The notes under the pieces: model-generated
Databases searched by the model: none
Told to the model about the DNA's origin: nothing
Seen by the model: the letters and a program-made list of their open reading frames with translations, nothing else
Made by a program: the position numbers and the translations under genes
Sequence record: MK310183
DNA: 64,000 nt
DNA from: Phage NC-B
Strand: one strand, 5' to 3'
Part shown: piece after piece, positions 7,355-52,220 of the stretch
Position numbering within the stretch: position 1 is the stretch's first letter
Layout of the letters: the number at the start of each line of letters is the position of its first letter

Positions 7355-8413
7355 ATGGCAAATCCAACTTTATTTGTATCTTACGACCAGAATGGTAAAA
7401 AACTTTCTTTTGCTAACTGGATTTCTGTCCTGTCTCCGCAAGACACTCCGTTTGTGTCTATGACTGGTAAAGAGTCTATCAATCAGACTATTTTCAGCTG
7501 GCAGACCGATGCTCTGGCGAGCGTAGATGCTAACAACGCCCACGTCGAAGGTTCTCGTGCTGAAGACGGCGAAATGAAACCGACTGTAATCAAGTCCAAC
7601 GTTACCCAAATTCTGCGTAAAGTTGTTCGTGTTTCTGATACTGCTAACACCACCGCTAACTACGGTCGTGGTCGTGAACTTATGTATCAGCTGGAGAAGA
7701 AAGGTAAAGAGATTAAACGTGACCTCGAGAAAATCTTGCTGTCCGGTCAGGCTCGTACCGATATTCTGGCAGACCAGTATCTGACCAACTCTGCAACTGA
7801 TCCTGCTGTTGTAGGTCAGAATGATACCTCAGCTGCTCGTAAGACTGGTGCTTTCCAGTTCCTGTGTGCACACAACGGTGTTGCTGGTGGTGTTGTTAAG
7901 AAAGAAGATGGTCCTGCTGACCCGGATACTGGTGCAGTAACTGTTAAAGTTGCACAGAATGCTTCTAACCCGACTACGAACATCGGTTTTGATGAAGCTG
8001 ATATCTTTGATATGACTCTGCAACTGTATACCGCCGGTTCTGAAGCAGACATCATCATGATTAACCCTGCTCACGCTAGTATCTTTGCTAAGCTTCAGGA
8101 AAACTCTGTTGGTTCTCGTCAGCGTATCTTTGAGAACACCAAACAGTTCATCTATGAAGTTAACAGCATCACTGACCCACTGGGCCAGAGCTATAAAATC
8201 ATCGTTAACCGTTGGATGCCTGCTGATGCAGTTTACTTCTTCCGCAGCTCTGACTGGACTCAGATGGTTCTTCGTGCTCCGAAACGTACTGAACTGGCGA
8301 AAGATGGTTCTTACGAGAAATGGATGATCGAAATGGAAGTTGGTCTGCGTCACCGCAACCCATATGCTTCCGGTGTACTGTTCACTGCTGCGGGAAAGGT
8401 GGAAGCGGCGTAA
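7355..8413 (+). CDS. major capsid protein (short form)
   Basis: 352 aa ORF after scaffold, strong AGGAG SD, stop TAA 8411-8413. Confidence 0.85.
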   Translation: MANPTLFVSYDQNGKKLSFANWISVLSPQDTPFVSMTGKESINQTIFSWQTDALASVDANNAHVEGSRAEDGEMKPTVIKSNVTQILRKVVRVSDTANTTANYGRGRELMYQLEKKGKEIKRDLEKILLSGQARTDILADQYLTNSATDPAVVGQNDTSAARKTGAFQFLCAHNGVAGGVVKKEDGPADPDTGAVTVKVAQNASNPTTNIGFDEADIFDMTLQLYTAGSEADIIMINPAHASIFAKLQENSVGSRQRIFENTKQFIYEVNSITDPLGQSYKIIVNRWMPADAVYFFRSSDWTQMVLRAPKRTELAKDGSYEKWMIEMEVGLRHRNPYASGVLFTAAGKVEAA

Positions 8414-9192
8414 CAGTAGATTCCGTAACTGTTAGTCCTTCGTCGGTTGCAAGCCTTCCGACGGGGGCTACTCAGCAGTTTACAGCTACAGCAGAAATGA
8501 GCGACGGCTCCACAAGCACAACCGGATTTAATTGGTCCGTTGAGGGCGGTGGGGCTGTTTCTGTTTCTGGGCTATATACTGCACCGAGTACGTCGCAAGA
8601 AACCCCAGCAACTATTACGGCTATTAAAGGTGGTAAGTCAGGTACTGCTACAGTTCTATCTGTTTTTGAACCTGCTACTATTGAAGCCAAAGCTAACATC
8701 TCGGGTAAAGTAGGTGGAAGCACCACAGCTTTTACTACAATGTTTACAGCAACTAACTCTTCAGCAGAAGATTATTCTTTTGTTGTATCTCCGACGTCAG
8801 CAGGAACCGTTAGTGCCGCAGGAGTTTTAACTTTAAGTAATGATGCAACTGGCACAGTTACTGTTAAAGCAACTCATAAAACTCAGTCAGGTGTTGAAGC
8901 TACTATAACCTTTACAGGTGTTGTTGCTAAAGCAGCTATTACTGGAAAAACCGTCACTGGTAAGGTTGGTGGTGATACTATTACGTTTGCTGAGTTATTT
9001 ACAGCAACTAACTCTTCAGCAGAAGATTACAACTTCGTATCAAGTCCTCCTGAAATGACTTCATCTATCGATGAGAGCACTGGTCTTGTTACCTTGGCTG
9101 CTGGCGCTACAGGTGATATCACAATTACTGCTACTCACAAAACACAAACGTCTGTGACAGCAACTGCTACGATTACGGTGGTATCAGAGTAA
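7355..9192 (+). CDS. major capsid protein long form (capsid fused to three Ig-like Big_2-type domains via -1 frameshift at 8392-8398)
   Basis: -1 frame ORF 8320..9192 has no independent SD; contains tandem repeats ...FTATNSSAEDY...TVKATHKTQ... Confidence 0.55.
8392..8398 (+). other. -1 programmed ribosomal frameshift slippery heptamer G_GGA_AAG
   Basis: X_XXY_YYZ heptamer 5 codons before the capsid stop; the -1 frame is open from here to 9192 and encodes Ig-like domains. Confidence 0.6.
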
Positions 9193-39082: not shown

Positions 39083-40930
39083 TTAGTGAGTGTGATTCCA
39101 GTTTAACCCAATCTTACAGTCAGATGCCAGAGGGCATTCCATTTTGAGATACTCACCTGCTTTACGAACACACTCTTCAGTGAGGGTACGAAGTTTGTTA
39201 ACATCGTCACGATGTACAGTGAACTGGCCTTCATCATGCATGTCAATAACCTTCGCACAACGAACACCATCACGCTCAATCCATTTATTAAGGAATAGCA
39301 TTGCATACTTCATAACAATCGCCCCAGCGCTCTGTAAGAGAGTATTTAAGGCTTTATGAACCATAACCTTTCCAGTTGCATCTCTTCTCATTGTAATACG
39401 ACGTCCATCCACACCGTAGATGTATCCACTTTGTGCTTTCTCTGTCATACGTTCAATAAGAATTGCAATACAAGGATTCTCTGCTAAGAATCTTGCCCTC
39501 ATGACAGCTCCTTCATCAGAGCCACCGCCTACGATGCTTCCTAACTTAGCGTCACCAGCTCCGTAGTTGAATGCGTAGATAAATGTTTTAGCATTATCAC
39601 GAGTAGGAAGGCCAGCAAGTTTTTGGTTATGTGAGTGAATATCTCCTTCTAAAAGAATATCTCTGTACATAACAGCAGAAGCTAGACCGCGTTCAGCTTC
39701 TCGTTTCTTAGCCGGGTTGTTTTCTCGCTCTGCTTCAGCGAGCATCTCACGACATTCTTTAATAAGGTAGTGAGCTAGCATCCTCAGCTCAAGACCAGAG
39801 CCATCGTAACCTAAGAAGATTTCACGACCAGCAGGAACATAGAACTTATAGGCACCTACAGGTTTGTCTTTCTTGCCCGGTTTTCCCACTTCGTAGATAA
39901 TGTTAGTACCCTTTCGTACGTAACACCCATCAGGGATATGGTTGGTAATGATGAAAGGATGGTTATGACTATCGTCTGAGGAATAGTCAGATTGAAAAAG
40001 ACTGCGGCACTCGTGACCAAACAAACCGCGAGAAGGAATATTAACAACAATGCGATGTTTAAAACGAAATGTCGGAGTAGCGCAGCTATTAGCTTCGGCG
40101 GACAACTTACCATCTTTACGTTCCTTGTCGATAAGCCCGCTAATCAAACCTAGCCTGTGAGCCGCTACAACGCGTCTCTTAAGCAAACTTCCTACACCCC
40201 CTAGCTCACCCCCAAGCCCTTCTTCAAGAGTCTCCTCAAGGTTTGTAGGGGCTGTAGGCCACTTGTTTGATGTAGCCAAAGCTTTTTTGATTTCATCAAA
40301 GGTTACAGGCTTCTTCCTATTAGGGTTAAGACCTAAACCGCTGACATAAGCTTTCATATAATTGACAGTGTGATAACGGAAGTGCTTATCCAAAAACCTT
40401 CGGATATCAGCATCTATCATCTCTGCTGTCTGTTTCTCTTTAGCGTTACCTCGAATCCAAGCAGAATACCATGCAGAGTATGTACCATACTTCTTCATAG
40501 CTTTACGAATTTCAAAAGTATTCCAAGGTTTCTTAGAATAATTCCACTCTGGAGGTATAAAACCTTCATCCATCAAGGCTTCTTTAATACGTGCATCTTT
40601 TGATGGGTCAAAATCTACATACTCAACGCAAGTAAACGCCCCACCGATATCTTCTCTTTTAAGACCAACCCTATCGCAATAGAGCTGAGGCCACTTCTGT
40701 AAAGCACCTGACTTCTTAAAAGGCTTAGCATAAGTTGAACCATCCACCCGCATTTTAGGGAGGAGAGGAATCAGTTCTTTATCAATATTGACAATAATCT
40801 CTTTGAGAAGGTGAACAAACCACCGAGCGTTTCTTCTGTTGAAGTTGACTCCATGCTTCGCTTGTTTTGAGATTATATCAGCGACTGTCATCTCCGTTAT
40901 GAAAGGTAACTTATCAGGGTTATCCATCAC
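39083..40930 (-). CDS. DNA polymerase, family A (polymerase domain only)
   Basis: motif A DGSGLELRMLAHY, motif B RDNAKTFIYAFNYGAG, motif C VIDMHDE; no exonuclease motifs in this ORF. Confidence 0.85.
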   Translation of the reverse strand: MMDNPDKLPFITEMTVADIISKQAKHGVNFNRRNARWFVHLLKEIIVNIDKELIPLLPKMRVDGSTYAKPFKKSGALQKWPQLYCDRVGLKREDIGGAFTCVEYVDFDPSKDARIKEALMDEGFIPPEWNYSKKPWNTFEIRKAMKKYGTYSAWYSAWIRGNAKEKQTAEMIDADIRRFLDKHFRYHTVNYMKAYVSGLGLNPNRKKPVTFDEIKKALATSNKWPTAPTNLEETLEEGLGGELGGVGSLLKRRVVAAHRLGLISGLIDKERKDGKLSAEANSCATPTFRFKHRIVVNIPSRGLFGHECRSLFQSDYSSDDSHNHPFIITNHIPDGCYVRKGTNIIYEVGKPGKKDKPVGAYKFYVPAGREIFLGYDGSGLELRMLAHYLIKECREMLAEAERENNPAKKREAERGLASAVMYRDILLEGDIHSHNQKLAGLPTRDNAKTFIYAFNYGAGDAKLGSIVGGGSDEGAVMRARFLAENPCIAILIERMTEKAQSGYIYGVDGRRITMRRDATGKVMVHKALNTLLQSAGAIVMKYAMLFLNKWIERDGVRCAKVIDMHDEGQFTVHRDDVNKLRTLTEECVRKAGEYLKMECPLASDCKIGLNWNHTH

Positions 40931-44303: not shown

Positions 44304-44519
44304 TTAATAATGAATCTTTTTATAAACCATATTGCTTCCGCCTTCTGTTTCAATCCCTTTCTGAATTGTAATCTTAGAAGCGCCAGTGTTAGCAATTTTC
44401 AAAGCTCGCTTAAATCTGCGAGCCTCTTTCCGTGTGGAGTATGTTGAGAAGCTAGGGATTGTACTATCAAAATTAAACCACTTAACTACCCAAAAAGTAA
44501 TCCAAGGTTTCTTTGCCAT
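44304..44519 (-). CDS. small basic protein, TRKEAR-motif family (paralog 3)
   Basis: 71 aa; shares W.V..W...F.TRKEAR..K and C-terminal Tyr with 46386..46598 and 46598..46813. Confidence 0.5.
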   Translation of the reverse strand: MAKKPWITFWVVKWFNFDSTIPSFSTYSTRKEARRFKRALKIANTGASKITIQKGIETEGGSNMVYKKIHY

Positions 44520-45424: not shown

Positions 45425-46000
45425 TTAGTAAGACACGTCACCACTGGAGTGGGACATGTTGCTCTTGACGAAGTAACAGAACTTGCCAAGACCTTCATTA
45501 ATTTCTTGAAGCATACTCTGATCAACTGGATAGGTGCACAAGTCTGAATCAAACTCGTCCATCTTCTCAATGATACACATAAGAGTCATGCACATGTCGG
45601 AAAGCATACCGTCCATGTCGAGATCAGCGTTACCTTCTCGGAACCAAGCATGACCTAAATAGTTACTAGCAGTAGCATCCACTTTAACACAGTGAAAGCG
45701 CATACGCTCTGCTATTCGGTCGCCTGCCTCACGAGCATAATCTTCTAGTTCATCGAACATACCATGAACACCTTGGAAACCAGCTCCAGAGACGTTCCAG
45801 TGGTAGTTCTTTGCTTTGATGTGTAGAAGTTCAAGGTTAGCTTGCACACCACACAAGATGTGTTCTAAGCTGTTACCACTAATCAGTTTATTCATTCCCT
45901 CAAGACGAGAAATAGAAGAGTCAGTAGTAGAGAATGGGTTGCTAGGACCCACTCTTGTTAGCTCTGGTAAATCGAAGACATTATTATGCATTAGGTGCAT
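45425..46000 (-). CDS. dps: Dps-like ferritin-fold protein
   Basis: LELLHIKAKNYHWNVSGAGFQGVHGMFDELEDYAREAGDRIAERMR closely matches the Dps ferroxidase-centre region (H, H, D, E positions conserved). Confidence 0.8.
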   Translation of the reverse strand: MHLMHNNVFDLPELTRVGPSNPFSTTDSSISRLEGMNKLISGNSLEHILCGVQANLELLHIKAKNYHWNVSGAGFQGVHGMFDELEDYAREAGDRIAERMRFHCVKVDATASNYLGHAWFREGNADLDMDGMLSDMCMTLMCIIEKMDEFDSDLCTYPVDQSMLQEINEGLGKFCYFVKSNMSHSSGDVSY

Positions 46001-46385: not shown

Positions 46386-46598
46386 TCAGTAGTAAACATA
46401 TCCAGAGATATATGAGCCTTTATCCCCACTAAACTCAAACCATCGATGCATGTCAGCACGTTTAACCGTACCGACTAGAGCTTTCATATTCTTCTTAGCA
46501 ATACGAGCCTCTTTACGAGTGTTAAACAGTTTGATACTATCTTTACCTAGATGGACACCATCTTCCCAAACAACACGAACAGCCCACATCTTTTTCAT
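46386..46598 (-). CDS. small basic protein, TRKEAR-motif family (paralog 2)
   Basis: MKKMWAVRVVWEDG...FNTRKEARIAKK...SGYVYY. Confidence 0.5.
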   Translation of the reverse strand: MKKMWAVRVVWEDGVHLGKDSIKLFNTRKEARIAKKNMKALVGTVKRADMHRWFEFSGDKGSYISGYVYY

Positions 46599-46813
46599 TA
46601 GTAATGTACCTTTCCGCTGATATAAATACGGCCTGAGGTATACTCATAGCCCTTGAGAATCTTAACAGAGATAAGATATCCAGTGTGTAATTCACTGAAT
46701 GATTTCTTAAGCCTACGTGCATCTTCTCGTGTTTTCTGGTAGGTCATGGTCACACCCCCACTTGTCCACTCTGTCTTAACTAACCAAATTCTTTTCATAA
46801 GACCTGCTCTCAT
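46598..46813 (-). CDS. small basic protein, TRKEAR-motif family (paralog 1)
   Basis: ...WLVKTEW...YQKTREDARRLKK...SGKVHY; stop/start overlap with paralog 2. Confidence 0.5.
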   Translation of the reverse strand: MRAGLMKRIWLVKTEWTSGGVTMTYQKTREDARRLKKSFSELHTGYLISVKILKGYEYTSGRIYISGKVHY

Positions 46814-47347
46814 TTAGACACCCTTAGAAGCAACTACACCTTCGCTACCATTATAGCGACCCTTAACTGCATAGGAATGTTCACCAGCATGTGAATGCTC
46901 AAACATCACCATCTGACCAACACGCATACCAGCACGAACTCGTAAGCTGTGGTGCTTGGTTACGTTATGAAATTCGAATGTCAGCTTGCTGTTGTTAAAC
47001 CCAGCGTCTGCCCAACCAGCATGTAAATGGTTCAGGCCACAACGAGCCATCGAAGATCGCAAAACAAACAAACTGGAGATGTTATCTGGAAGGTTGAACT
47101 CTTCCATTGAGTGAGCCAAGAAGAATTGTCCCGGAGTGATGATAATACCATCTTCAGGGATTTTTACTTCTTTCCACTTGAGGTTTTCTTTAGCATCAAT
47201 GTCAACAATACCATCAGCCTGTTCTTCAACAAGGATAGTATCACCAATGCGGATATCCACGCTAGCAGCGTTAACATATTTATGCTCCGCATCTAAAAAG
47301 CCATTATCAATAACGCTGTGTAATTCTTGAGAACCTAAAAGACTCAT
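46814..47347 (-). CDS. dcd: dCTP deaminase (Dcd/dUTPase superfamily)
   Basis: AASVDIRIGD, RSSMARCGLNHLHAGWADAGF, LRVRAGMRVGQMVMFE match Dcd. Confidence 0.8.
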   Translation of the reverse strand: MSLLGSQELHSVIDNGFLDAEHKYVNAASVDIRIGDTILVEEQADGIVDIDAKENLKWKEVKIPEDGIIITPGQFFLAHSMEEFNLPDNISSLFVLRSSMARCGLNHLHAGWADAGFNNSKLTFEFHNVTKHHSLRVRAGMRVGQMVMFEHSHAGEHSYAVKGRYNGSEGVVASKGV

Positions 47348-48789
47348 GAGTTTCTGTTTCCTTGTACGGATGATGCCAAATTATTAATCATGTTGCGAGC
47401 TGTTTCACGAGATAGTGTAACACCTGCTAAGTTGTTACGAAGCTCACCAGATAGTTCACGAGCAGTAGCTCGAAGTTCTGCACCAAGTGCAGTGTCAGAG
47501 TGAGCCAGACCGTTACGACGACCAACAGGTCGAGGAGCTTCGTTAGCGTCATTAGCTAATGATGCAAAACCAATATGAGCAGCTTCACGAGCCGCTATAG
47601 CTGATACTCGATCTTCTGTAGGGGTTGGTAAATCACCAACGTCTACACGTTCGATATCACTAGCACGAATTCCACCAACAACAGATCTTACTGTTTCCCA
47701 TGAACGACGAGAACGCTGCAAATCATCCATTGATGGAGAAGAAACAGGACGAGCAGTTCCCCCTGAGACATGCCATGTATGGTTGTGGGTGTCCGTCCCG
47801 GAAGAGCGTGAACTAACACGTAAGTCACCGGTAAAAGTTTCACGAGGTGCCACTGTAGAAGGAGCTGCGAATCTTGCCTGTTGCCAAGAATCACGTCTGT
47901 TGGTTCCCGGAGTCCAAGGCTGCGTGATTGCTTCAGCACCTATAGTGGTTAATCCGCTAGACCATTCTGTCTGTAGATTAACTTCCTCGTCCAGATAACT
48001 ACGACCCCTTTCCTGAGGAATGTTTAATATAGTTTCCATCATCTTCAGGGTATAATGACGACGCTGATTCTGATATAAATTTACACCAGCCATAGGTCCA
48101 ACTAAATCACTAATCAGGTGAACTTCTGGCTCACCGAAAGCTCCCATTGCAAGGTGCATATATTCAGTAGAACTGCTATAAACTGCAACAGTTGCTTCAG
48201 GCCACTTCTTGTGAACATACTTCATTTCACGACTAGATACCACAGGAATGTCACGAGTGTATGACATTGCAAACAAACCTTCGTTTGACACATACAGATT
48301 ACCAAGAGTCATAAACCCTTGACAGATCATAGGGAAGCGACGGCTTAAAGTGTCCATATCCAAAGGTAGATTAATCATCATCTGGATTTTAACTTGATCA
48401 ATCTCAATTTCCAGAATCTCTTGGAAAGTGAAAAGCGCTTCAGCATAAGTTGTCCCGTTAACAGGTTGAACTAGTCGAGATGTTACTTGAAGTCCCTTAC
48501 TCTCTGTCCAAGACAAGAAGTTGTCGAGGAACAGTGCAGCATTGCCTACGTTAGCAGGGCTATTTTCCTGACGAGTGTTCCAACGAAGACCGCCTTGAAC
48601 TAGGAAGATATCAACATCATTCGGAGTTCTATTTTGGAAGAACGTATCACGGATAGCACCACCTGCAATAACAGGATAGATGCCATCAGGGACTACGTTA
48701 TCTCTGATCAAATTACGAATCAGGTCAAGCCCTACACTGAGGGCTTCTCCTTCTTGAAGGTTCAATTCAGACAATGGAATCTTAATCAT
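47344..48789 (-). CDS. nucleotidyltransferase (CCA-adding / poly(A) polymerase head-domain type) with disordered Arg/Ser-rich C-terminal half
   Basis: VIAGGAIRDTFFQNRTPNDVDIFLV matches the GGxxRD...DxD head-domain signature; C-terminal about 230 aa are R/S/T/A/G-rich low complexity. Confidence 0.6.
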   Translation of the reverse strand: MIKIPLSELNLQEGEALSVGLDLIRNLIRDNVVPDGIYPVIAGGAIRDTFFQNRTPNDVDIFLVQGGLRWNTRQENSPANVGNAALFLDNFLSWTESKGLQVTSRLVQPVNGTTYAEALFTFQEILEIEIDQVKIQMMINLPLDMDTLSRRFPMICQGFMTLGNLYVSNEGLFAMSYTRDIPVVSSREMKYVHKKWPEATVAVYSSSTEYMHLAMGAFGEPEVHLISDLVGPMAGVNLYQNQRRHYTLKMMETILNIPQERGRSYLDEEVNLQTEWSSGLTTIGAEAITQPWTPGTNRRDSWQQARFAAPSTVAPRETFTGDLRVSSRSSGTDTHNHTWHVSGGTARPVSSPSMDDLQRSRRSWETVRSVVGGIRASDIERVDVGDLPTPTEDRVSAIAAREAAHIGFASLANDANEAPRPVGRRNGLAHSDTALGAELRATARELSGELRNNLAGVTLSRETARNMINNLASSVQGNRNS

Positions 48790-48791
48790 TT

Positions 48792-49340
48792 CTACATTTT
48801 CCAGTTGAGAGATGGGGGATTTCTATAATCAAATCCTGCCATTTGGCAAAGACACATGTAAACCTTAACTGTTAAGTTAACGTCTTGCTCACAATACGTG
48901 AACATGTCTTCAGTGAAAGCATCCCATGCTTCTTCCTGTTCACCATAGTCACCCTTCAGCTCTCCCAGAAATTCGCCCCATTGCTTGAGGCCATGACCGC
49001 GAGGGCCATGTCTAGGGTCGCCTTTGGGGTATTCTGGACTGTCACCAATACGGTCAGGCTTGAGGTATCGACTCAGGCACAGGGTATCAAAGACATTAAA
49101 ACGAAAAGGTATCACATGAGAGTAGAATTTAAAGAGAGCACATAAATCATAATCAATGATGTTATGTCCAATCACAACATCAGCCTCTTTGAGTTTATAA
49201 AGAGCATCCTCAATCTCATGTGGTCTAAACCCCCAACGCTCTCCTGAGAGAACATCAAAAATCCAAACACACCAGATATCAGAGACTTCTTCATACAACC
49301 CGTTGGCTTCTATGTCAAAAGCGTAAAGTTTCTTATCCAT
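48792..49340 (-). CDS. 3'-5' exonuclease (DnaQ/DEDD, Pol I proofreading type), separate gene
   Basis: Exo I FDIEANGL, Exo [10 protein letters not shown], Exo [11 protein letters not shown]; start set to ATG 49340. Confidence 0.8.
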
Positions 49341-49776
49341 AAGATTTTTCCAGATACCGCAAGGCGGAGCGTATAATCTCAAGGTCATCTTTTAAATAAC
49401 CTATCCCTGAATTGCACGATCTGCATAGGATTCCTCTAACAACACCTGTTTCGTGACAATGGTCCACACAAGCAATTTTACTTATGTTTTTCATTTCATC
49501 CGAGATGCTTAACTCTTTGCCGCAAATAGCACAAGAGTTATCCTGAGAACCCAATAGAGCTTTGACGTCATCAAGACTTAAACCATATTGCTTCAGTGAG
49601 TTTTTCCTAGAAGCTTTTCGGTGAATCTCTTTAACACCCTCTATATTGTGATATCTGAACATAGTCCTGTCATTCATGCAGACTTTACAAGAAGACCTAT
49701 ACCTGCCAGACTCAGACCTCTTATAGAAAGCGTCTAGGGGTTTTTCAACCCCACACTTACTACAGGTTTTTACCAA
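49333..49776 (-). CDS. endonuclease VII-like Holliday-junction resolvase
   Basis: [24 protein letters not shown] matches the T4 endo VII core; N-terminal zinc-ribbon cysteines. Confidence 0.8.
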
Positions 49777-51560
49777 GGCCGTGCCTCCCCATCTTGTGTT
49801 AGAAGGGAAGCTGCATCTTCTCCGTTGGTGACTGTAAACGGATTATCTTCATCAACTTCATGATCTTCTCGTTCCACAAGACGACCTGTTTCGTTGATGT
49901 ATTTGGTATAGCAAACCCCTGTCTGTCCATAGTTACGCTCTTTGAGCAGACGTATGATTGACAAGTTTTTACCTAACCCATCCGCTTGCTTATTACGTTC
50001 GAAACCGATAATACATTGACACCAGCGCATTAATGAACGTGAGCCAGTAAACTGTACTTCTTTAACCTGACCACCTTCTTCGTGAGGGGCACCGCCCGCC
50101 GGAGCATTCAAGTGAGATAACACAAAAGCAGTGAAGTCTAATTCCTTACACATACCAGCAAGCTCTGAAGCAATCTTACTGATTTCTGTATTCACTTCGG
50201 ATGGAGTTAAGTGAGATACCAATGCAGTGATGTTATCAAGGATGATAAACTTACACTGATTCTCAACTACCCAAAAGCGAATACACTGCTTAATGTCTTC
50301 CCACTCATTCTGTCCAAAGTTGTCGTATAAGAAAAACTTATCAGCGTATCGAAGTGCTTCATCTCGTAGCTGACTTTCTTCATACTCAACATCTGGTCGG
50401 TGAAATGGAACAGATGCAGACTTACCAGCAATGTTCTTAACAGACATGCCTACCTTCTCTTCCAAGAAGAAGCCACCACCATTAAAACCATGCTCAAGGC
50501 AAAGCCATGCTACCAGTTCGTGTGCGATTAAGGTTTTACCTGAACCAACACCACCTCCGATTGCAACCATCTCTCCCCAACGAATACCAAAGGTCATGTC
50601 ATTGAGAGTTTTCCACGGATAAGGGATACCCCATTCCGCTTTCTTCAGAGCGTCTTCAAGGCAGTCAAAAACTGTAACAGCTCCAGCAGGAGATTCCCGC
50701 TTAGCTGAATACTTCAGATTATTGAAAAGCTCTTGACCTCTCCCTGCCAGTAACATGTCGTTTGCATCTTTGATTTCCTTTTCCTGTCCGTTGTAAGTAA
50801 ACGTACCTTTTGGAATTCTTGCAAACTTGACATGTGGGTACAGAGAACGACCTTTAGTCAATGCAATCTCACCTGCATCATCATTGTCCATGCAGAGTAC
50901 AATCTCCTCGAAACCGTTAATAAAATCACGATTTCTTGATAACACAGAAGAGATTGAACCTGCACCGAACGGAAGAGAGACACAAGCAGGTTTGATATTA
51001 GTTGCGTTTGTGAACGCAGTAAGTACGTGGAATCCAGACATACAAGAGAGTGGGTCTTCAAAGATGAAGAGCTTCTTATTGTAAACATCGCCACGTTGTG
51101 CTTGAGCCATACCAAATAAGTCGGCTTCTTTCACATTACCTACATAATAGAACTTCTTGCTGTCTAGAAGTTTTACTTCATATCCAACAATATTCCCATC
51201 ACGTTCACGAGGGAAGAAGTAGCTGTCAGGAGTTTGACCGTCTGTTTGACTTAAACCAATACGGCATCCATAACGTTCAGATACAGCTTTAGGAATTAAG
51301 CGACGAGTCAATTCTCCCTGAGGAAGCTCTAAGCAATCGTCTAAGACTTCTCGGAGTTCTTCAGGGGACAGCTCTTTCTTTTCATTAGGAGTGGGCGTCG
51401 TTCCTTTCTCGAAGATTTCATACGCACCACATCTGTTACATGAACCCCACTCCTCACCGGACTCTTCATTTCGGAAGAGAATCATGTGATTGCGGGTCTT
51501 ATCACGACCATGAGAGATACACTCTTTACAGCCCGTGTCTCCCAAAATGATCTTTGACAT
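49770..51560 (-). CDS. DNA primase/helicase (T7 gp4-like)
   Basis: N-terminal zinc ribbon CKECISHG...CNRCGAY; helicase Walker A GGGVGSGKT, Walker B FIILDNIT. Confidence 0.85.
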   Translation of the reverse strand: MSKIILGDTGCKECISHGRDKTRNHMILFRNEESGEEWGSCNRCGAYEIFEKGTTPTPNEKKELSPEELREVLDDCLELPQGELTRRLIPKAVSERYGCRIGLSQTDGQTPDSYFFPRERDGNIVGYEVKLLDSKKFYYVGNVKEADLFGMAQAQRGDVYNKKLFIFEDPLSCMSGFHVLTAFTNATNIKPACVSLPFGAGSISSVLSRNRDFINGFEEIVLCMDNDDAGEIALTKGRSLYPHVKFARIPKGTFTYNGQEKEIKDANDMLLAGRGQELFNNLKYSAKRESPAGAVTVFDCLEDALKKAEWGIPYPWKTLNDMTFGIRWGEMVAIGGGVGSGKTLIAHELVAWLCLEHGFNGGGFFLEEKVGMSVKNIAGKSASVPFHRPDVEYEESQLRDEALRYADKFFLYDNFGQNEWEDIKQCIRFWVVENQCKFIILDNITALVSHLTPSEVNTEISKIASELAGMCKELDFTAFVLSHLNAPAGGAPHEEGGQVKEVQFTGSRSLMRWCQCIIGFERNKQADGLGKNLSIIRLLKERNYGQTGVCYTKYINETGRLVEREDHEVDEDNPFTVTNGEDAASLLTQDGEARPW

Positions 51561-51595: not shown

Positions 51596-51802
51596 TTAGT
51601 AAAACGATCGTATTTCTTCCCACACATCATCTTGCAAGTTTCTAAAACCCTGCAAGGTTTGCTTTGTTCTGTGAATAAATTCTTCAGAGTGCTTATCAGG
51701 TGTGAGCATACTGACAAACTTTTCATAGCGATTAATCTTCCACCGCATCTTCAAGTAGTCAGATTCCAGCTTTCTTAACTTCTGCCTGTCAGTTACTGTC
51801 AT
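51596..51802 (-). CDS. hypothetical protein
   Basis: ORF 51596..51898 trimmed to ATG 51802 to limit overlap with upstream gene. Confidence 0.4.
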   Translation of the reverse strand: MTVTDRQKLRKLESDYLKMRWKINRYEKFVSMLTPDKHSEEFIHRTKQTLQGFRNLQDDVWEEIRSFY

Positions 51803-52220
51803 CCTTCTCACCTGCCAGATATGCTGTCCAGTCACCAGATTCAACCAGAACATCTTGTTCTTCGTCGATGTGATAAATCCACGCTTCCACAGTTTCACCG
51901 CTGTCCAATAATACTGGAATCAGCGTACGCTTGTAAAAGGTGTATGGGTTATCATTACCACGATGACCTTCCAGACCGTCATACGGACCTTCCAGACCAG
52001 CTTGGGTTGTTTCAAAGACCTCTACACGAACAGGCTTACCGTTGCTGTCATGCTCCAGAGATACACTTGGGAAGTATGCTGTGCAATACTGATACAGGTT
52101 ACAGTTGTTTACTGTCCACCCTTCACCAATAGACACACCACCTGCGCGAGCATTGATAGCGTGGTTGTGTTGACCTTTACGAAGAGAACCATACGTTGCA
52201 ACTAATACTTTATCAGACAT
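51789..52220 (-). CDS. gamma-glutamyl cyclotransferase-like (AIG2/GGCT family) protein
   Basis: N-terminal VATYGSLRKGQHNH (YGSL motif). Confidence 0.7.
   Translation of the reverse strand: MSDKVLVATYGSLRKGQHNHAINARAGGVSIGEGWTVNNCNLYQYCTAYFPSVSLEHDSNGKPVRVEVFETTQAGLEGPYDGLEGHRGNDNPYTFYKRTLIPVLLDSGETVEAWIYHIDEEQDVLVESGDWTAYLAGEKDDSN

Follow-up and report, generated by a model that had tools for sequence, protein, structure and literature searches.

The window analysed here, a stretch of 64,000 nucleotides from Phage NC-B (sequence record MK310183), derives from a phiEco32-like podophage of Suseptimavirus (Gordonclarkvirinae). On its minus strand lies a gene for a nucleotidyltransferase of 481 amino acids (aa), in which a predicted catalytic core of the class II type, the branch of CCA-adding enzymes as well as poly(A) polymerases, is followed by a long, predicted disordered C-terminal tail that contains no lysine. 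The DNA of this region is about 96% identical to that of the Escherichia phages 4E8, vB_EcoP-101114UKE3 (hereafter UKE3) and IME267, all of them Suseptimavirus. The gene, its two direct neighbours and the elements of the core are the following.

47344..48789, minus strand: nucleotidyltransferase coding sequence, 481 aa plus stop, ATG start (from the list of open reading frames, ORFs)
47941..48789, minus strand: folded catalytic core, predicted class II-type head plus a short helical region, aa 1-283
48604..48669, minus strand: motif A, IAGGAIRDTFFQNRTPNDVDIF, with the metal-binding residues D58 and D60, aa 41-62 (translation checked)
48418..48420, minus strand: E124, candidate third catalytic carboxylate in a predicted strand (122-130)
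48199..48231, minus strand: family motif R-[DE]-x-x-Y-x-x-K-K-W-P (here REMKYVHKKWP), aa 187-197
46814..47347, minus strand: dCTP deaminase, downstream neighbour (Pfam DCD, E 6.5e-35)
48792..49340, minus strand: PolA-type 3'-5' exonuclease subunit, upstream neighbour (Pfam DNA_pol_A_exo1, weak, E 1.7e-4)

The first-pass annotation of this DNA had placed the gene at the coordinates given above, between a dCTP deaminase gene and a separately encoded exonuclease gene, and warned against taking it for a part of the DNA polymerase. The coordinates, on the minus strand with an ATG start, proved correct, and the Pfam matches of both neighbours agree with this arrangement; the DNA_pol_A polymerase domain is encoded about 8 kb from the nucleotidyltransferase gene, at 39083-40930. 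The stop codon of the exonuclease gene and the start codon of the nucleotidyltransferase gene are 2 nt apart, and the TGA of the latter shares an ATGA overlap with the ATG of the dCTP deaminase gene; thus, the three genes look translationally coupled.

The gene itself is not new. PHROG 12715, described as nucleotidyltransferase, matches aa 1-474 of the protein (E 1.8e-166), orthologues with 85-100% identity are found in 22 clusters and 22 phage records, and RefSeq labels the orthologue "nucleotidyltransferase", while an identical protein in a Shigella sonnei assembly is labelled hypothetical. Two orthologues, SU10 CDS74 and that of O18-011, are already annotated as CCA-adding enzymes, and one peptide of the SU10 orthologue was detected by mass spectrometry (PMC4281155).

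Class II signature of the predicted catalytic core

Among the sequence motifs of class II enzymes, motif A is the only one detectable in the protein. It reads G43-G44-A-I-R47-D48 ... D58-V-D60, and the pattern GG..RD.{6,14}D.D has a single match in the six-frame translation of the window, as compared with a mean of 0.005 in shuffled windows; the GGxxRD...DxD signature pointed out in the first-pass annotation is therefore real. An exhaustive phmmer search among 1.84 billion cluster representatives revealed a family of 28 proteins with the same core throughout. The family alignment delimits a conserved core at about aa 1-215, and the residues G43, G44, R47, D48, D58, D60, F62, [DE]124, I125, Q136, P153, [DE]188, Y191 and K195 are invariant in the 26 full-length members, down to about 25% identity between them. 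Such conservation of acidic residues speaks in favour of an active enzyme, and position 124, which is always Asp or Glu, may contribute a further catalytic carboxylate, judging from the pol-beta fold. The ratio of nonsynonymous to synonymous substitution rates (dN/dS), calculated here and below from seven Suseptimavirus-type sequences, is 0.09 for aa 1-215.

Confidence in the AlphaFold model is high up to about aa 280, with predicted local distance difference test (pLDDT) scores mostly >90. The fold of its head domain is closest to solved class II enzymes, in agreement with Foldseek, and the nearest structures are all nucleic-acid 3'-end transferases, including CCA-, CC- and A-adding enzymes. 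At the sequence level, the family profile matched class II CCA-adding enzymes in the PDB only over 27 residues of motif A (E 0.0066). The PolyA_pol profile (PF01743, gathering score 23 bits), which had been proposed as a check of the first-pass annotation, gave sub-threshold matches in 18 of the 28 family members, restricted to motif A, with a best E of 2.5e-4, whereas the protein from the window had no Pfam match even at E 10. A CD-NTase (cGAS/DncV-like), which the first-pass annotation had named as an alternative, was rejected, being neither a profile match in PADLOC nor the closest fold. The evidence supports placing the N-terminal domain in class II, the CCA-adding / poly(A) polymerase branch of the pol-beta-fold nucleotidyltransferases.

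The class II CCA-adding enzymes of Bacillus stearothermophilus (1MIV), Thermotoga maritima (3H37), human (TRNT1, 1OU5) and E. coli (Cca) share with the phage protein the head fold, the motif A (GGxVRD...DxD) and the two-metal pol-beta active site, the fold and the active site of the phage protein being predicted. Other elements of the phage protein differ from theirs. The RRD triplet of motif B is ribose-recognising, and the EDxxR of motif D serves as the amino-acid template for CTP and ATP. When the profile of the core was aligned with those of E. coli Cca and PcnB, only motif A was covered. For motif B (RRD, a part of RRDFTINA) there are two candidate alignments, to aa 150-152 or to aa 156-158, and it is conserved in neither. 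At this place the family has the consensus F-P-x-x-C-[RK]-x without a conserved Asp, the protein from the window having Q157-G158. Collinear with EDxxR, which is EDPLR in E. coli Cca and EDPVR in PcnB, is R187-[DE]188-x-x-Y191-x-x-K194-K195, where the acid is retained and the templating Arg is replaced by an invariant Tyr. In the model, a strand (181-183) is followed by a helix (186-195) that begins with this family motif, and we infer from the collinearity with Cca and PcnB and from the predicted secondary structure that aa 187-197 may be the equivalent of motif D.

The body and tail domains that bind tRNA in class II CCA-adding enzymes were detected neither by Pfam in the window protein and the 28 members nor in the AlphaFold model, where the head is followed by about 80 aa of helices and then by disorder; the HD domain is missing as well. 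A 36-aa N-terminal extension is added, and the disordered tail stands in place of the folded RNA-binding domains. Having neither conserved motifs B and D nor the body and tail domains, the protein is a class II-type enzyme and not a demonstrable CCA-adding enzyme. Similarly, E. coli PcnB (3AQL), poly(A) polymerase I (PAP I), has the RRD and EDPVR motifs and an RNA-binding body domain, which the phage protein does not; the combination of an RRD + EDxxR core with an RNA-binding body that characterizes PAP I was not found. The stand-alone CCA-enzyme head of Streptococcus pneumoniae (NP_344798.1, 2LA3) is cellular, has no disordered tail and matches much more weakly than the full class II enzymes. 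The first-pass identification of a CCA-adding or poly(A) polymerase-like enzyme was right at the level of the superfamily and is unsupported at the level of function.

The lysine-free C-terminal tail

Four features were delineated in the C-terminal part of the protein.

47347..47940, minus strand: C-terminal tail, predicted disordered, Arg/Ser/Thr/Ala/Gly-rich and lysine-free, aa 284-481
47740..47901, minus strand: hypervariable, indel-rich part of the tail, aa 297-350, with indels among sequences at least 85% identical and a dN/dS of 0.45
47689..47715, minus strand: conserved tail motif RSRRSWETV, aa 359-367, with S360-V367 invariant in 13 close relatives
47362..47424, minus strand: conserved C-terminal predicted helix, GVTLSRETARNMINNLASSVQ, aa 456-476, in which only S460 varies (S/T) among the 13 close relatives (pLDDT 50-70)

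The Arg/Ser-rich disordered tail of the first-pass annotation stands as far as disorder, as predicted, and compositional bias are concerned, whereas its length is about 200 aa instead of 230. The AlphaFold model gives pLDDT scores mostly <50 over aa 284-481, with weak helices at 392-416, 434-454 and 461-476. Within aa 297-481, Arg accounts for 13%, Ala for 12% and Ser for 12% of residues, Arg, Ser, Thr, Ala and Gly together for 52%, and the isoelectric point (pI) is about 11; when 185-aa stretches of the 40 long ORFs of the window are ranked by their content of these five residues, the tail comes second. Its entropy of 3.79 bits indicates a biased composition and not a simple repeat. The local rise in GC content noted in the first-pass annotation is real and modest (0.476 in the tail versus 0.4225 in the window), and the GC content at third codon positions (GC3, 0.227) shows that it comes from Arg, Ala and Gly codons and not from foreign DNA. 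An origin from foreign DNA, or coding in another frame, was rejected, given this GC3 and a dN/dS below 1 in the annotated frame; the nested ORFs 47688-47939 (minus strand) and 47783-47998 (plus strand) require no explanation.

The length of the tail after an aromatic-x-x-G motif (W276-S-S-G279) varies within the family from 8 to 207 residues. It is longest, at about 200 aa, in the lineage of the window, where the W-S-x-G-L motif is all that BLAST can align with the phiEco32 tail, while short members of 274-300 aa are almost tail-less and keep all catalytic residues. The dN/dS is 0.11 for aa 216-296 and 0.25 for aa 351-481. Most of the GFASLANDAN segment (aa 407-416) and nearly all of the last 25 or so residues are invariant in the 13 close relatives. 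Strings of the R-(R)-x-S-hydrophobic-acidic type, similar to RSRRSWETV, occur in about nine distant tails, and the distant members P0026 and P0028 have a "TLEEVRIRVNNIA" or "TMEEVRRNVNEMA" related to the segment of the C-terminal predicted helix. The dN/dS of aa 351-481, the invariant segments in close relatives and the family-wide exclusion of Lys imply that the tail is functional. It is a maintained, fast-evolving and probably disordered appendage with short conserved elements, under purifying selection weaker than that on the core.

The lack of lysine was overlooked in the first-pass annotation. The last lysine of the window protein is K249; the 232 residues of aa 250-481 contain 26 Arg and no Lys, and the tail proper (aa 284-481) 24 Arg and no Lys. 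The same Lys-free composition is common to all Gordonclarkvirinae orthologues of PHROG 12715: 15 family tails (1497 residues) contain 167 Arg and no Lys, and the tails of 22 close relatives (4471 residues) 494 Arg and no Lys, versus 448 Arg and 155 Lys in the folded cores of the family (7161 residues). At the Lys frequency of the cores, the probability of no Lys in 1497 residues is about 6e-15. Lysine avoidance is not a genome-wide habit, since another biased ORF of the window, 8320-9192, has Lys and no Arg at all. The tail pI ranges from 4.9 to 12 across the family, so that net charge is not conserved and a plain basic RNA-binding tail was rejected; the basic end of PcnB, unlike the phage tail, has lysines. 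What is conserved in the tail is that Arg is permitted and Lys never occurs. Candidate explanations include an avoidance of Lys-directed modification or conjugation, an avoidance of amine chemistry near activated nucleotides or nucleic-acid ends, and Arg-specific contacts with nucleic acid.

Family distribution and genomic neighbourhood

The orthologues phiEco32 gp73, SU10 CDS74 and those of the RefSeq Gordonclarkvirinae occupy the same slot between the exonuclease subunit and dCTP deaminase genes. Identity to the window protein is 85-93% in the Suseptimavirus-type phages and 33% to phiEco32 gp73 over aa 1-283; the protein of Bas87, a relative that plates on K-12, is 91.5% identical. Among the 1.84 billion representatives, phmmer found no match to the tail only and no fusion to another domain; the odd one out, P0049 (3044 aa, 11 stretches), has the repetitive character of a surface-type protein, and its match seems to be due to chance. 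When the core alignment was used for a profile word-search, only four further proteins came up, with no cellular homologues and no fusions.

The block of primase/helicase, exonuclease, nucleotidyltransferase and dCTP deaminase genes, with dCTP deaminase as the constant downstream neighbour, is kept in all five distant metagenomic contigs. Where a contig of the phiEco32-like lineage reaches far enough, the order is GGACT (gamma-glutamyl cyclotransferase-like), primase/helicase, PolA exonuclease, nucleotidyltransferase, dCTP deaminase, thioredoxin and the thymidylate synthase ThyX. This order holds even for members that are 22-28% identical, and ThyX is present in the window and in 4 of 4 related contigs that are long enough (L003, L021, L022 and the UKE3 record). 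The constant link to T7-type replication genes, in small phage genomes, is no more than suggestive.

A Foldseek search of the viral models in BFVD retrieved short proteins (137-215 aa) of Autographiviridae (Providencia PS3, phiAS7, VEN, Ninurta, LIMEzero) and of Vibrio phage ICP1, which have the head domain of a poly(A) polymerase. When the Gordonclarkvirinae core was compared by hhalign with five Autographiviridae nucleotidyltransferases, the two profiles aligned over 134 columns with 95.9% probability (E 6e-9), and the Autographiviridae enzymes aligned to E. coli Cca and PcnB with 85% probability (E 6e-6). Judging from these profile alignments, the Gordonclarkvirinae core is homologous to the short Autographiviridae nucleotidyltransferases that flank primase/helicase or DNA polymerase. 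LIMEzero ORF22, Lidtsur gp25, WRT gp21 and gp28 of Pectobacterium phage PP47 share with the window protein the core, a Pfam PolyA_pol match that is only sub-threshold and lies at motif A, and replication genes as neighbours. The Autographiviridae gene is directly upstream of the DNA polymerase gene in LIMEzero, Lidtsur and ECBP5 and directly upstream of the primase/helicase gene in UNO-SLW1 and WRT; in a published Pectobacterium phage map it lies between gene 4.5 and the polymerase gene (PMC7693777). The Autographiviridae enzymes differ from the Gordonclarkvirinae family in their size (180-230 aa), in having no disordered tail and no adjacent dCTP deaminase, and in keeping a remnant of motif B, D-F-N-I-N-Q-F, which aligns to RRDLTINA in hhalign and which the Gordonclarkvirinae family has lost.

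Several further observations concern the genes around the nucleotidyltransferase. The exonuclease subunit ORF was listed as 48792-49388 (198 aa); its M17, at 49340, is likely the real start, the translation from this position having been checked, and the orthologues in SU7 and UKE3, annotated as DNA polymerase or exonuclease subunit, are 182 aa long. The family A DNA polymerase is split between this subunit and a 615-aa polymerase (39083-40930, minus strand), in which Pfam DNA_pol_A covers aa 363-612 only, leaving the first 360 residues without an assignment. Between the exonuclease subunit and the primase/helicase lies an ORF of the endonuclease VII/HNH type (49333-49776, minus strand, 147 aa, Pfam Endonuclease_7, E 7e-21), with which the 198-aa exonuclease ORF overlaps at its 5' end. 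At this place SU7, phiEco32 and UKE3 have no endonuclease ORF, and their primase/helicase and exonuclease genes overlap directly; the ORF is probably a homing endonuclease insertion. In one distant relative (L021, 3867-6459), an HNH endonuclease gene splits the primase/helicase into Toprim and DnaB_C parts, and the replication module of this contig is dotted with several further HNH genes. The T7 gp4-like primase/helicase of the window (49770-51560, minus strand) has an acidic tail with an aromatic last residue. It is reminiscent of the C-termini by which T7 gp4 and gp2.5 dock on the polymerase and which are likewise acidic with an aromatic end. Acidic-aromatic ends are also found in several short-tailed nucleotidyltransferase members and in the ECBP5 nucleotidyltransferase.

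The GGACT gene (51789-52220, minus strand) is linked to the primase/helicase gene in distant relatives too, and the region upstream of it, to about 62000, contains an early gene cluster that is conserved and whose members are labelled ATP-grasp, COOH-NH2 ligase and glutamine amidotransferase/aminotransferase in relatives. Three minus-strand ORFs of about 70 aa (44304-44519, 46386-46598 and 46598-46813), two of them directly downstream of the dCTP deaminase gene, are paralogues with 28-33% identity that share T-R-K/E-E/D-A-R-R-x-K-K and a C-terminal (V/I)(H/Y)Y. The ORF 45425-46000 (minus strand) is ferritin/Dps-like (Pfam Ferritin, E 7e-8) and is named a DNA-binding Dps-family protein in phiEco32 and SU7; the "integrase" label of the corresponding ORF in NC_070982 is probably an annotation error.

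Candidate activities and biological significance

We propose that the protein may be an active, minimal class II-derived nucleotidyltransferase, which would carry out untemplated addition of nucleotides to a 3'-OH, in all likelihood that of an RNA, with a specificity unlike that of CCA addition; we give this reading a probability of roughly 0.45. Two metal ions would be held by D58, D60 and D/E124, and a nucleoside monophosphate would be moved from a nucleoside triphosphate onto the 3'-OH of the acceptor, for which an RNA end is the most probable candidate. Presenting the substrate would be the task of a partner protein or of the flexible, Arg-rich and Lys-free tail of the enzyme itself, acting as a tether. 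Since the nucleotide-selecting motifs are replaced and the tRNA-clamping domains are missing, both nucleotide and substrate specificity are expected to differ from those of CCA addition. The enzyme would be made alongside the genes for replication and deoxynucleoside triphosphate (dNTP) supply, its translation being apparently coupled with that of the exonuclease subunit and dCTP deaminase. The catalytic activity, the 3'-OH acceptor, the RNA substrate and the tethering by the tail are what we infer from these features.

Several points weigh against this proposal. With motif B and EDxxR missing, it cannot be predicted which sugar (ribo or deoxy) or which base the enzyme would select. The surrounding genes serve DNA replication and dNTP synthesis and not RNA processing, so that the acceptor could be DNA, a primer, a nucleotide or a protein. 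The existence of almost tail-less members indicates that the tail is not essential for the basic reaction. The AlphaFold model was built on a family alignment of 28 sequences only, and the window protein has no sequence match of its own in Pfam or NCBIfam, nor in PADLOC, nor among PDB sequences searched by phmmer. Finally, the literature that we found consists of genome descriptions only, with no biochemical study or measured activity of any family member.

The first-pass annotation had suggested that the enzyme repairs tRNA 3' ends, which would mean a true CCA-adding activity that restores the CCA ends of tRNAs, be they from the host or the phage, after trimming by nucleases of the host or by defence toxins. 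Such a role is in line with a motif A of the CCA-enzyme type, with the CCA-adding enzymes among the nearest structures, with the annotation of the orthologue in some records and with the tRNA-Arg gene of related phages. We consider it unlikely, since motifs B and D, which select ribose and the C and A bases, are not conserved, the domains that hold the tRNA are missing, and E. coli has a Cca of its own. ARAGORN detected no tRNA gene in the window. The close relative UKE3 has one tRNA-Arg(UCU) gene (L020 34989-35064, NC_070982 65488-65563), just beyond the region corresponding to the window, and it already encodes its ACCA end; a need of the phage to add CCA to its own tRNA was accordingly rejected. 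The constant gene partners are replication and dNTP genes, not RNA-repair genes, and neither an RNA ligase nor a polynucleotide kinase appears among the annotations of the 45 kb listed of the UKE3 genome. Nothing specific to CCA addition or tRNA repair was thus found.

The constant position of the gene, just after the primase/helicase and between the PolA exonuclease and dCTP deaminase in every member examined, together with the apparent translational coupling, would also fit an end-transferase coupled to replication at a T7-type replisome. The substrates of such an enzyme would be RNA primers, tRNA-like ACCA primer ends or 3' ends of DNA, and the tail would tether the enzyme to the primase/helicase, the polymerase or single-stranded nucleic acid. 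The Autographiviridae homologues likewise adjoin DNA polymerase or primase/helicase genes, and a loss of the ribose-sensing RRD would be compatible with the use of dNTPs. It should be noted that tRNA ACCA ends can reportedly prime T7 DNA synthesis. However, adjacency is weak evidence, because DNA-metabolism genes cluster in small phage genomes; no fusion to a replication domain appeared in the phmmer or profile word-searches, the C-terminal residues are not conserved between genera, and we know of no characterised class II enzyme that acts on DNA. This explanation is unlikely. The same low probability attaches to its extension to the minimal class II-like enzymes of T7-type podophages (Gordonclarkvirinae and Autographiviridae) in general, as replisome accessories that would extend primer, tRNA-ACCA or nascent DNA 3' ends, the expandable Arg-rich tail of the phiEco32 lineage being a tether to the replisome or nucleic acid from which Lys is excluded because it would be modified there, chemically or enzymatically.

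PAP I has a basic, Arg-rich C-terminal stretch resembling the tail of the window protein, and the gene lies in a module for nucleotide supply that also comprises dCTP deaminase, ThyX and thioredoxin. Both facts would agree with a PAP-like tailing of host or phage transcripts, which would either speed up their decay, yielding nucleotides for phage DNA synthesis, or alter their stability. Such tailing is improbable, given that PAP I keeps the RRD and EDxxR motifs that the phage family has lost, that tail charge is not conserved and that the short members have no tail.

A different role is suggested by the BASEL-II paper (Humolli et al. 2025, PMC11990801), which reports a remarkable resistance of the Gordonclarkvirinae to restriction-modification systems, draws attention to the conserved locus in which dCTP deaminase and nucleotidyltransferase lie with replication genes, and speculates on a DNA modification pathway. 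The enzyme would then be part of a route of DNA or nucleotide modification that confers this resistance, and it is true that the nucleotidyltransferase and dCTP deaminase genes overlap and are always adjacent. On the other hand, dCTP deaminase, ThyX and a dNMP kinase (annotated in UKE3) explain an ordinary dTTP supply, and the Autographiviridae homologues have no dCTP deaminase next to them. To our knowledge, the known phage DNA-modification pathways operate without class II pol-beta nucleotidyltransferases, and we regard this possibility as very unlikely.

Some pol-beta-fold enzymes, such as GlnE and MntA, nucleotidylylate proteins. By analogy, the phage enzyme might attach AMP or another nucleotide to a protein of the host or the phage or to its own Ser/Thr-rich tail (21% Ser + Thr), which is tethered to the active site, and the strict absence of Lys would then reflect the chemistry at or near this site. 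The chance of this is slim: all nearest structures are nucleic-acid 3'-end transferases, class II offers no precedent, and the tail-less members keep all catalytic residues. Hardly any weight can be given to a non-catalytic scaffold that keeps the fold only, as the loss of motifs B and D and the missing Pfam match might suggest, because the metal ligands and the GG-x-x-RD loop are invariant in a family that is otherwise about 25% identical.

The annotation of the gene and its mention in the literature are thus earlier than this analysis, and the idea of CCA repair is neither new nor specifically supported. What is new is that motifs B and D and the tRNA-binding domains have been lost, that the family is homologous, as judged by profile comparison, to the replication-linked nucleotidyltransferases of Autographiviridae, that it is very small, and that it has a lysine-free tail of variable length. 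An activity, if found, would establish what a core gene does in common and poorly studied E. coli phages, which are candidates for phage therapy and are notably resistant to restriction. It would likewise establish what the related genes do in about 200 genomes of T7-like phages. The lost nucleotide-selecting motifs make the family a natural experiment on substrate choice in class II enzymes. The one clearly unusual feature is the tail, with no lysine in about 6000 family tail residues in an AT-rich genome, which hints at a lysine-directed process, whether modification, conjugation or reactive chemistry, that these proteins have to avoid.

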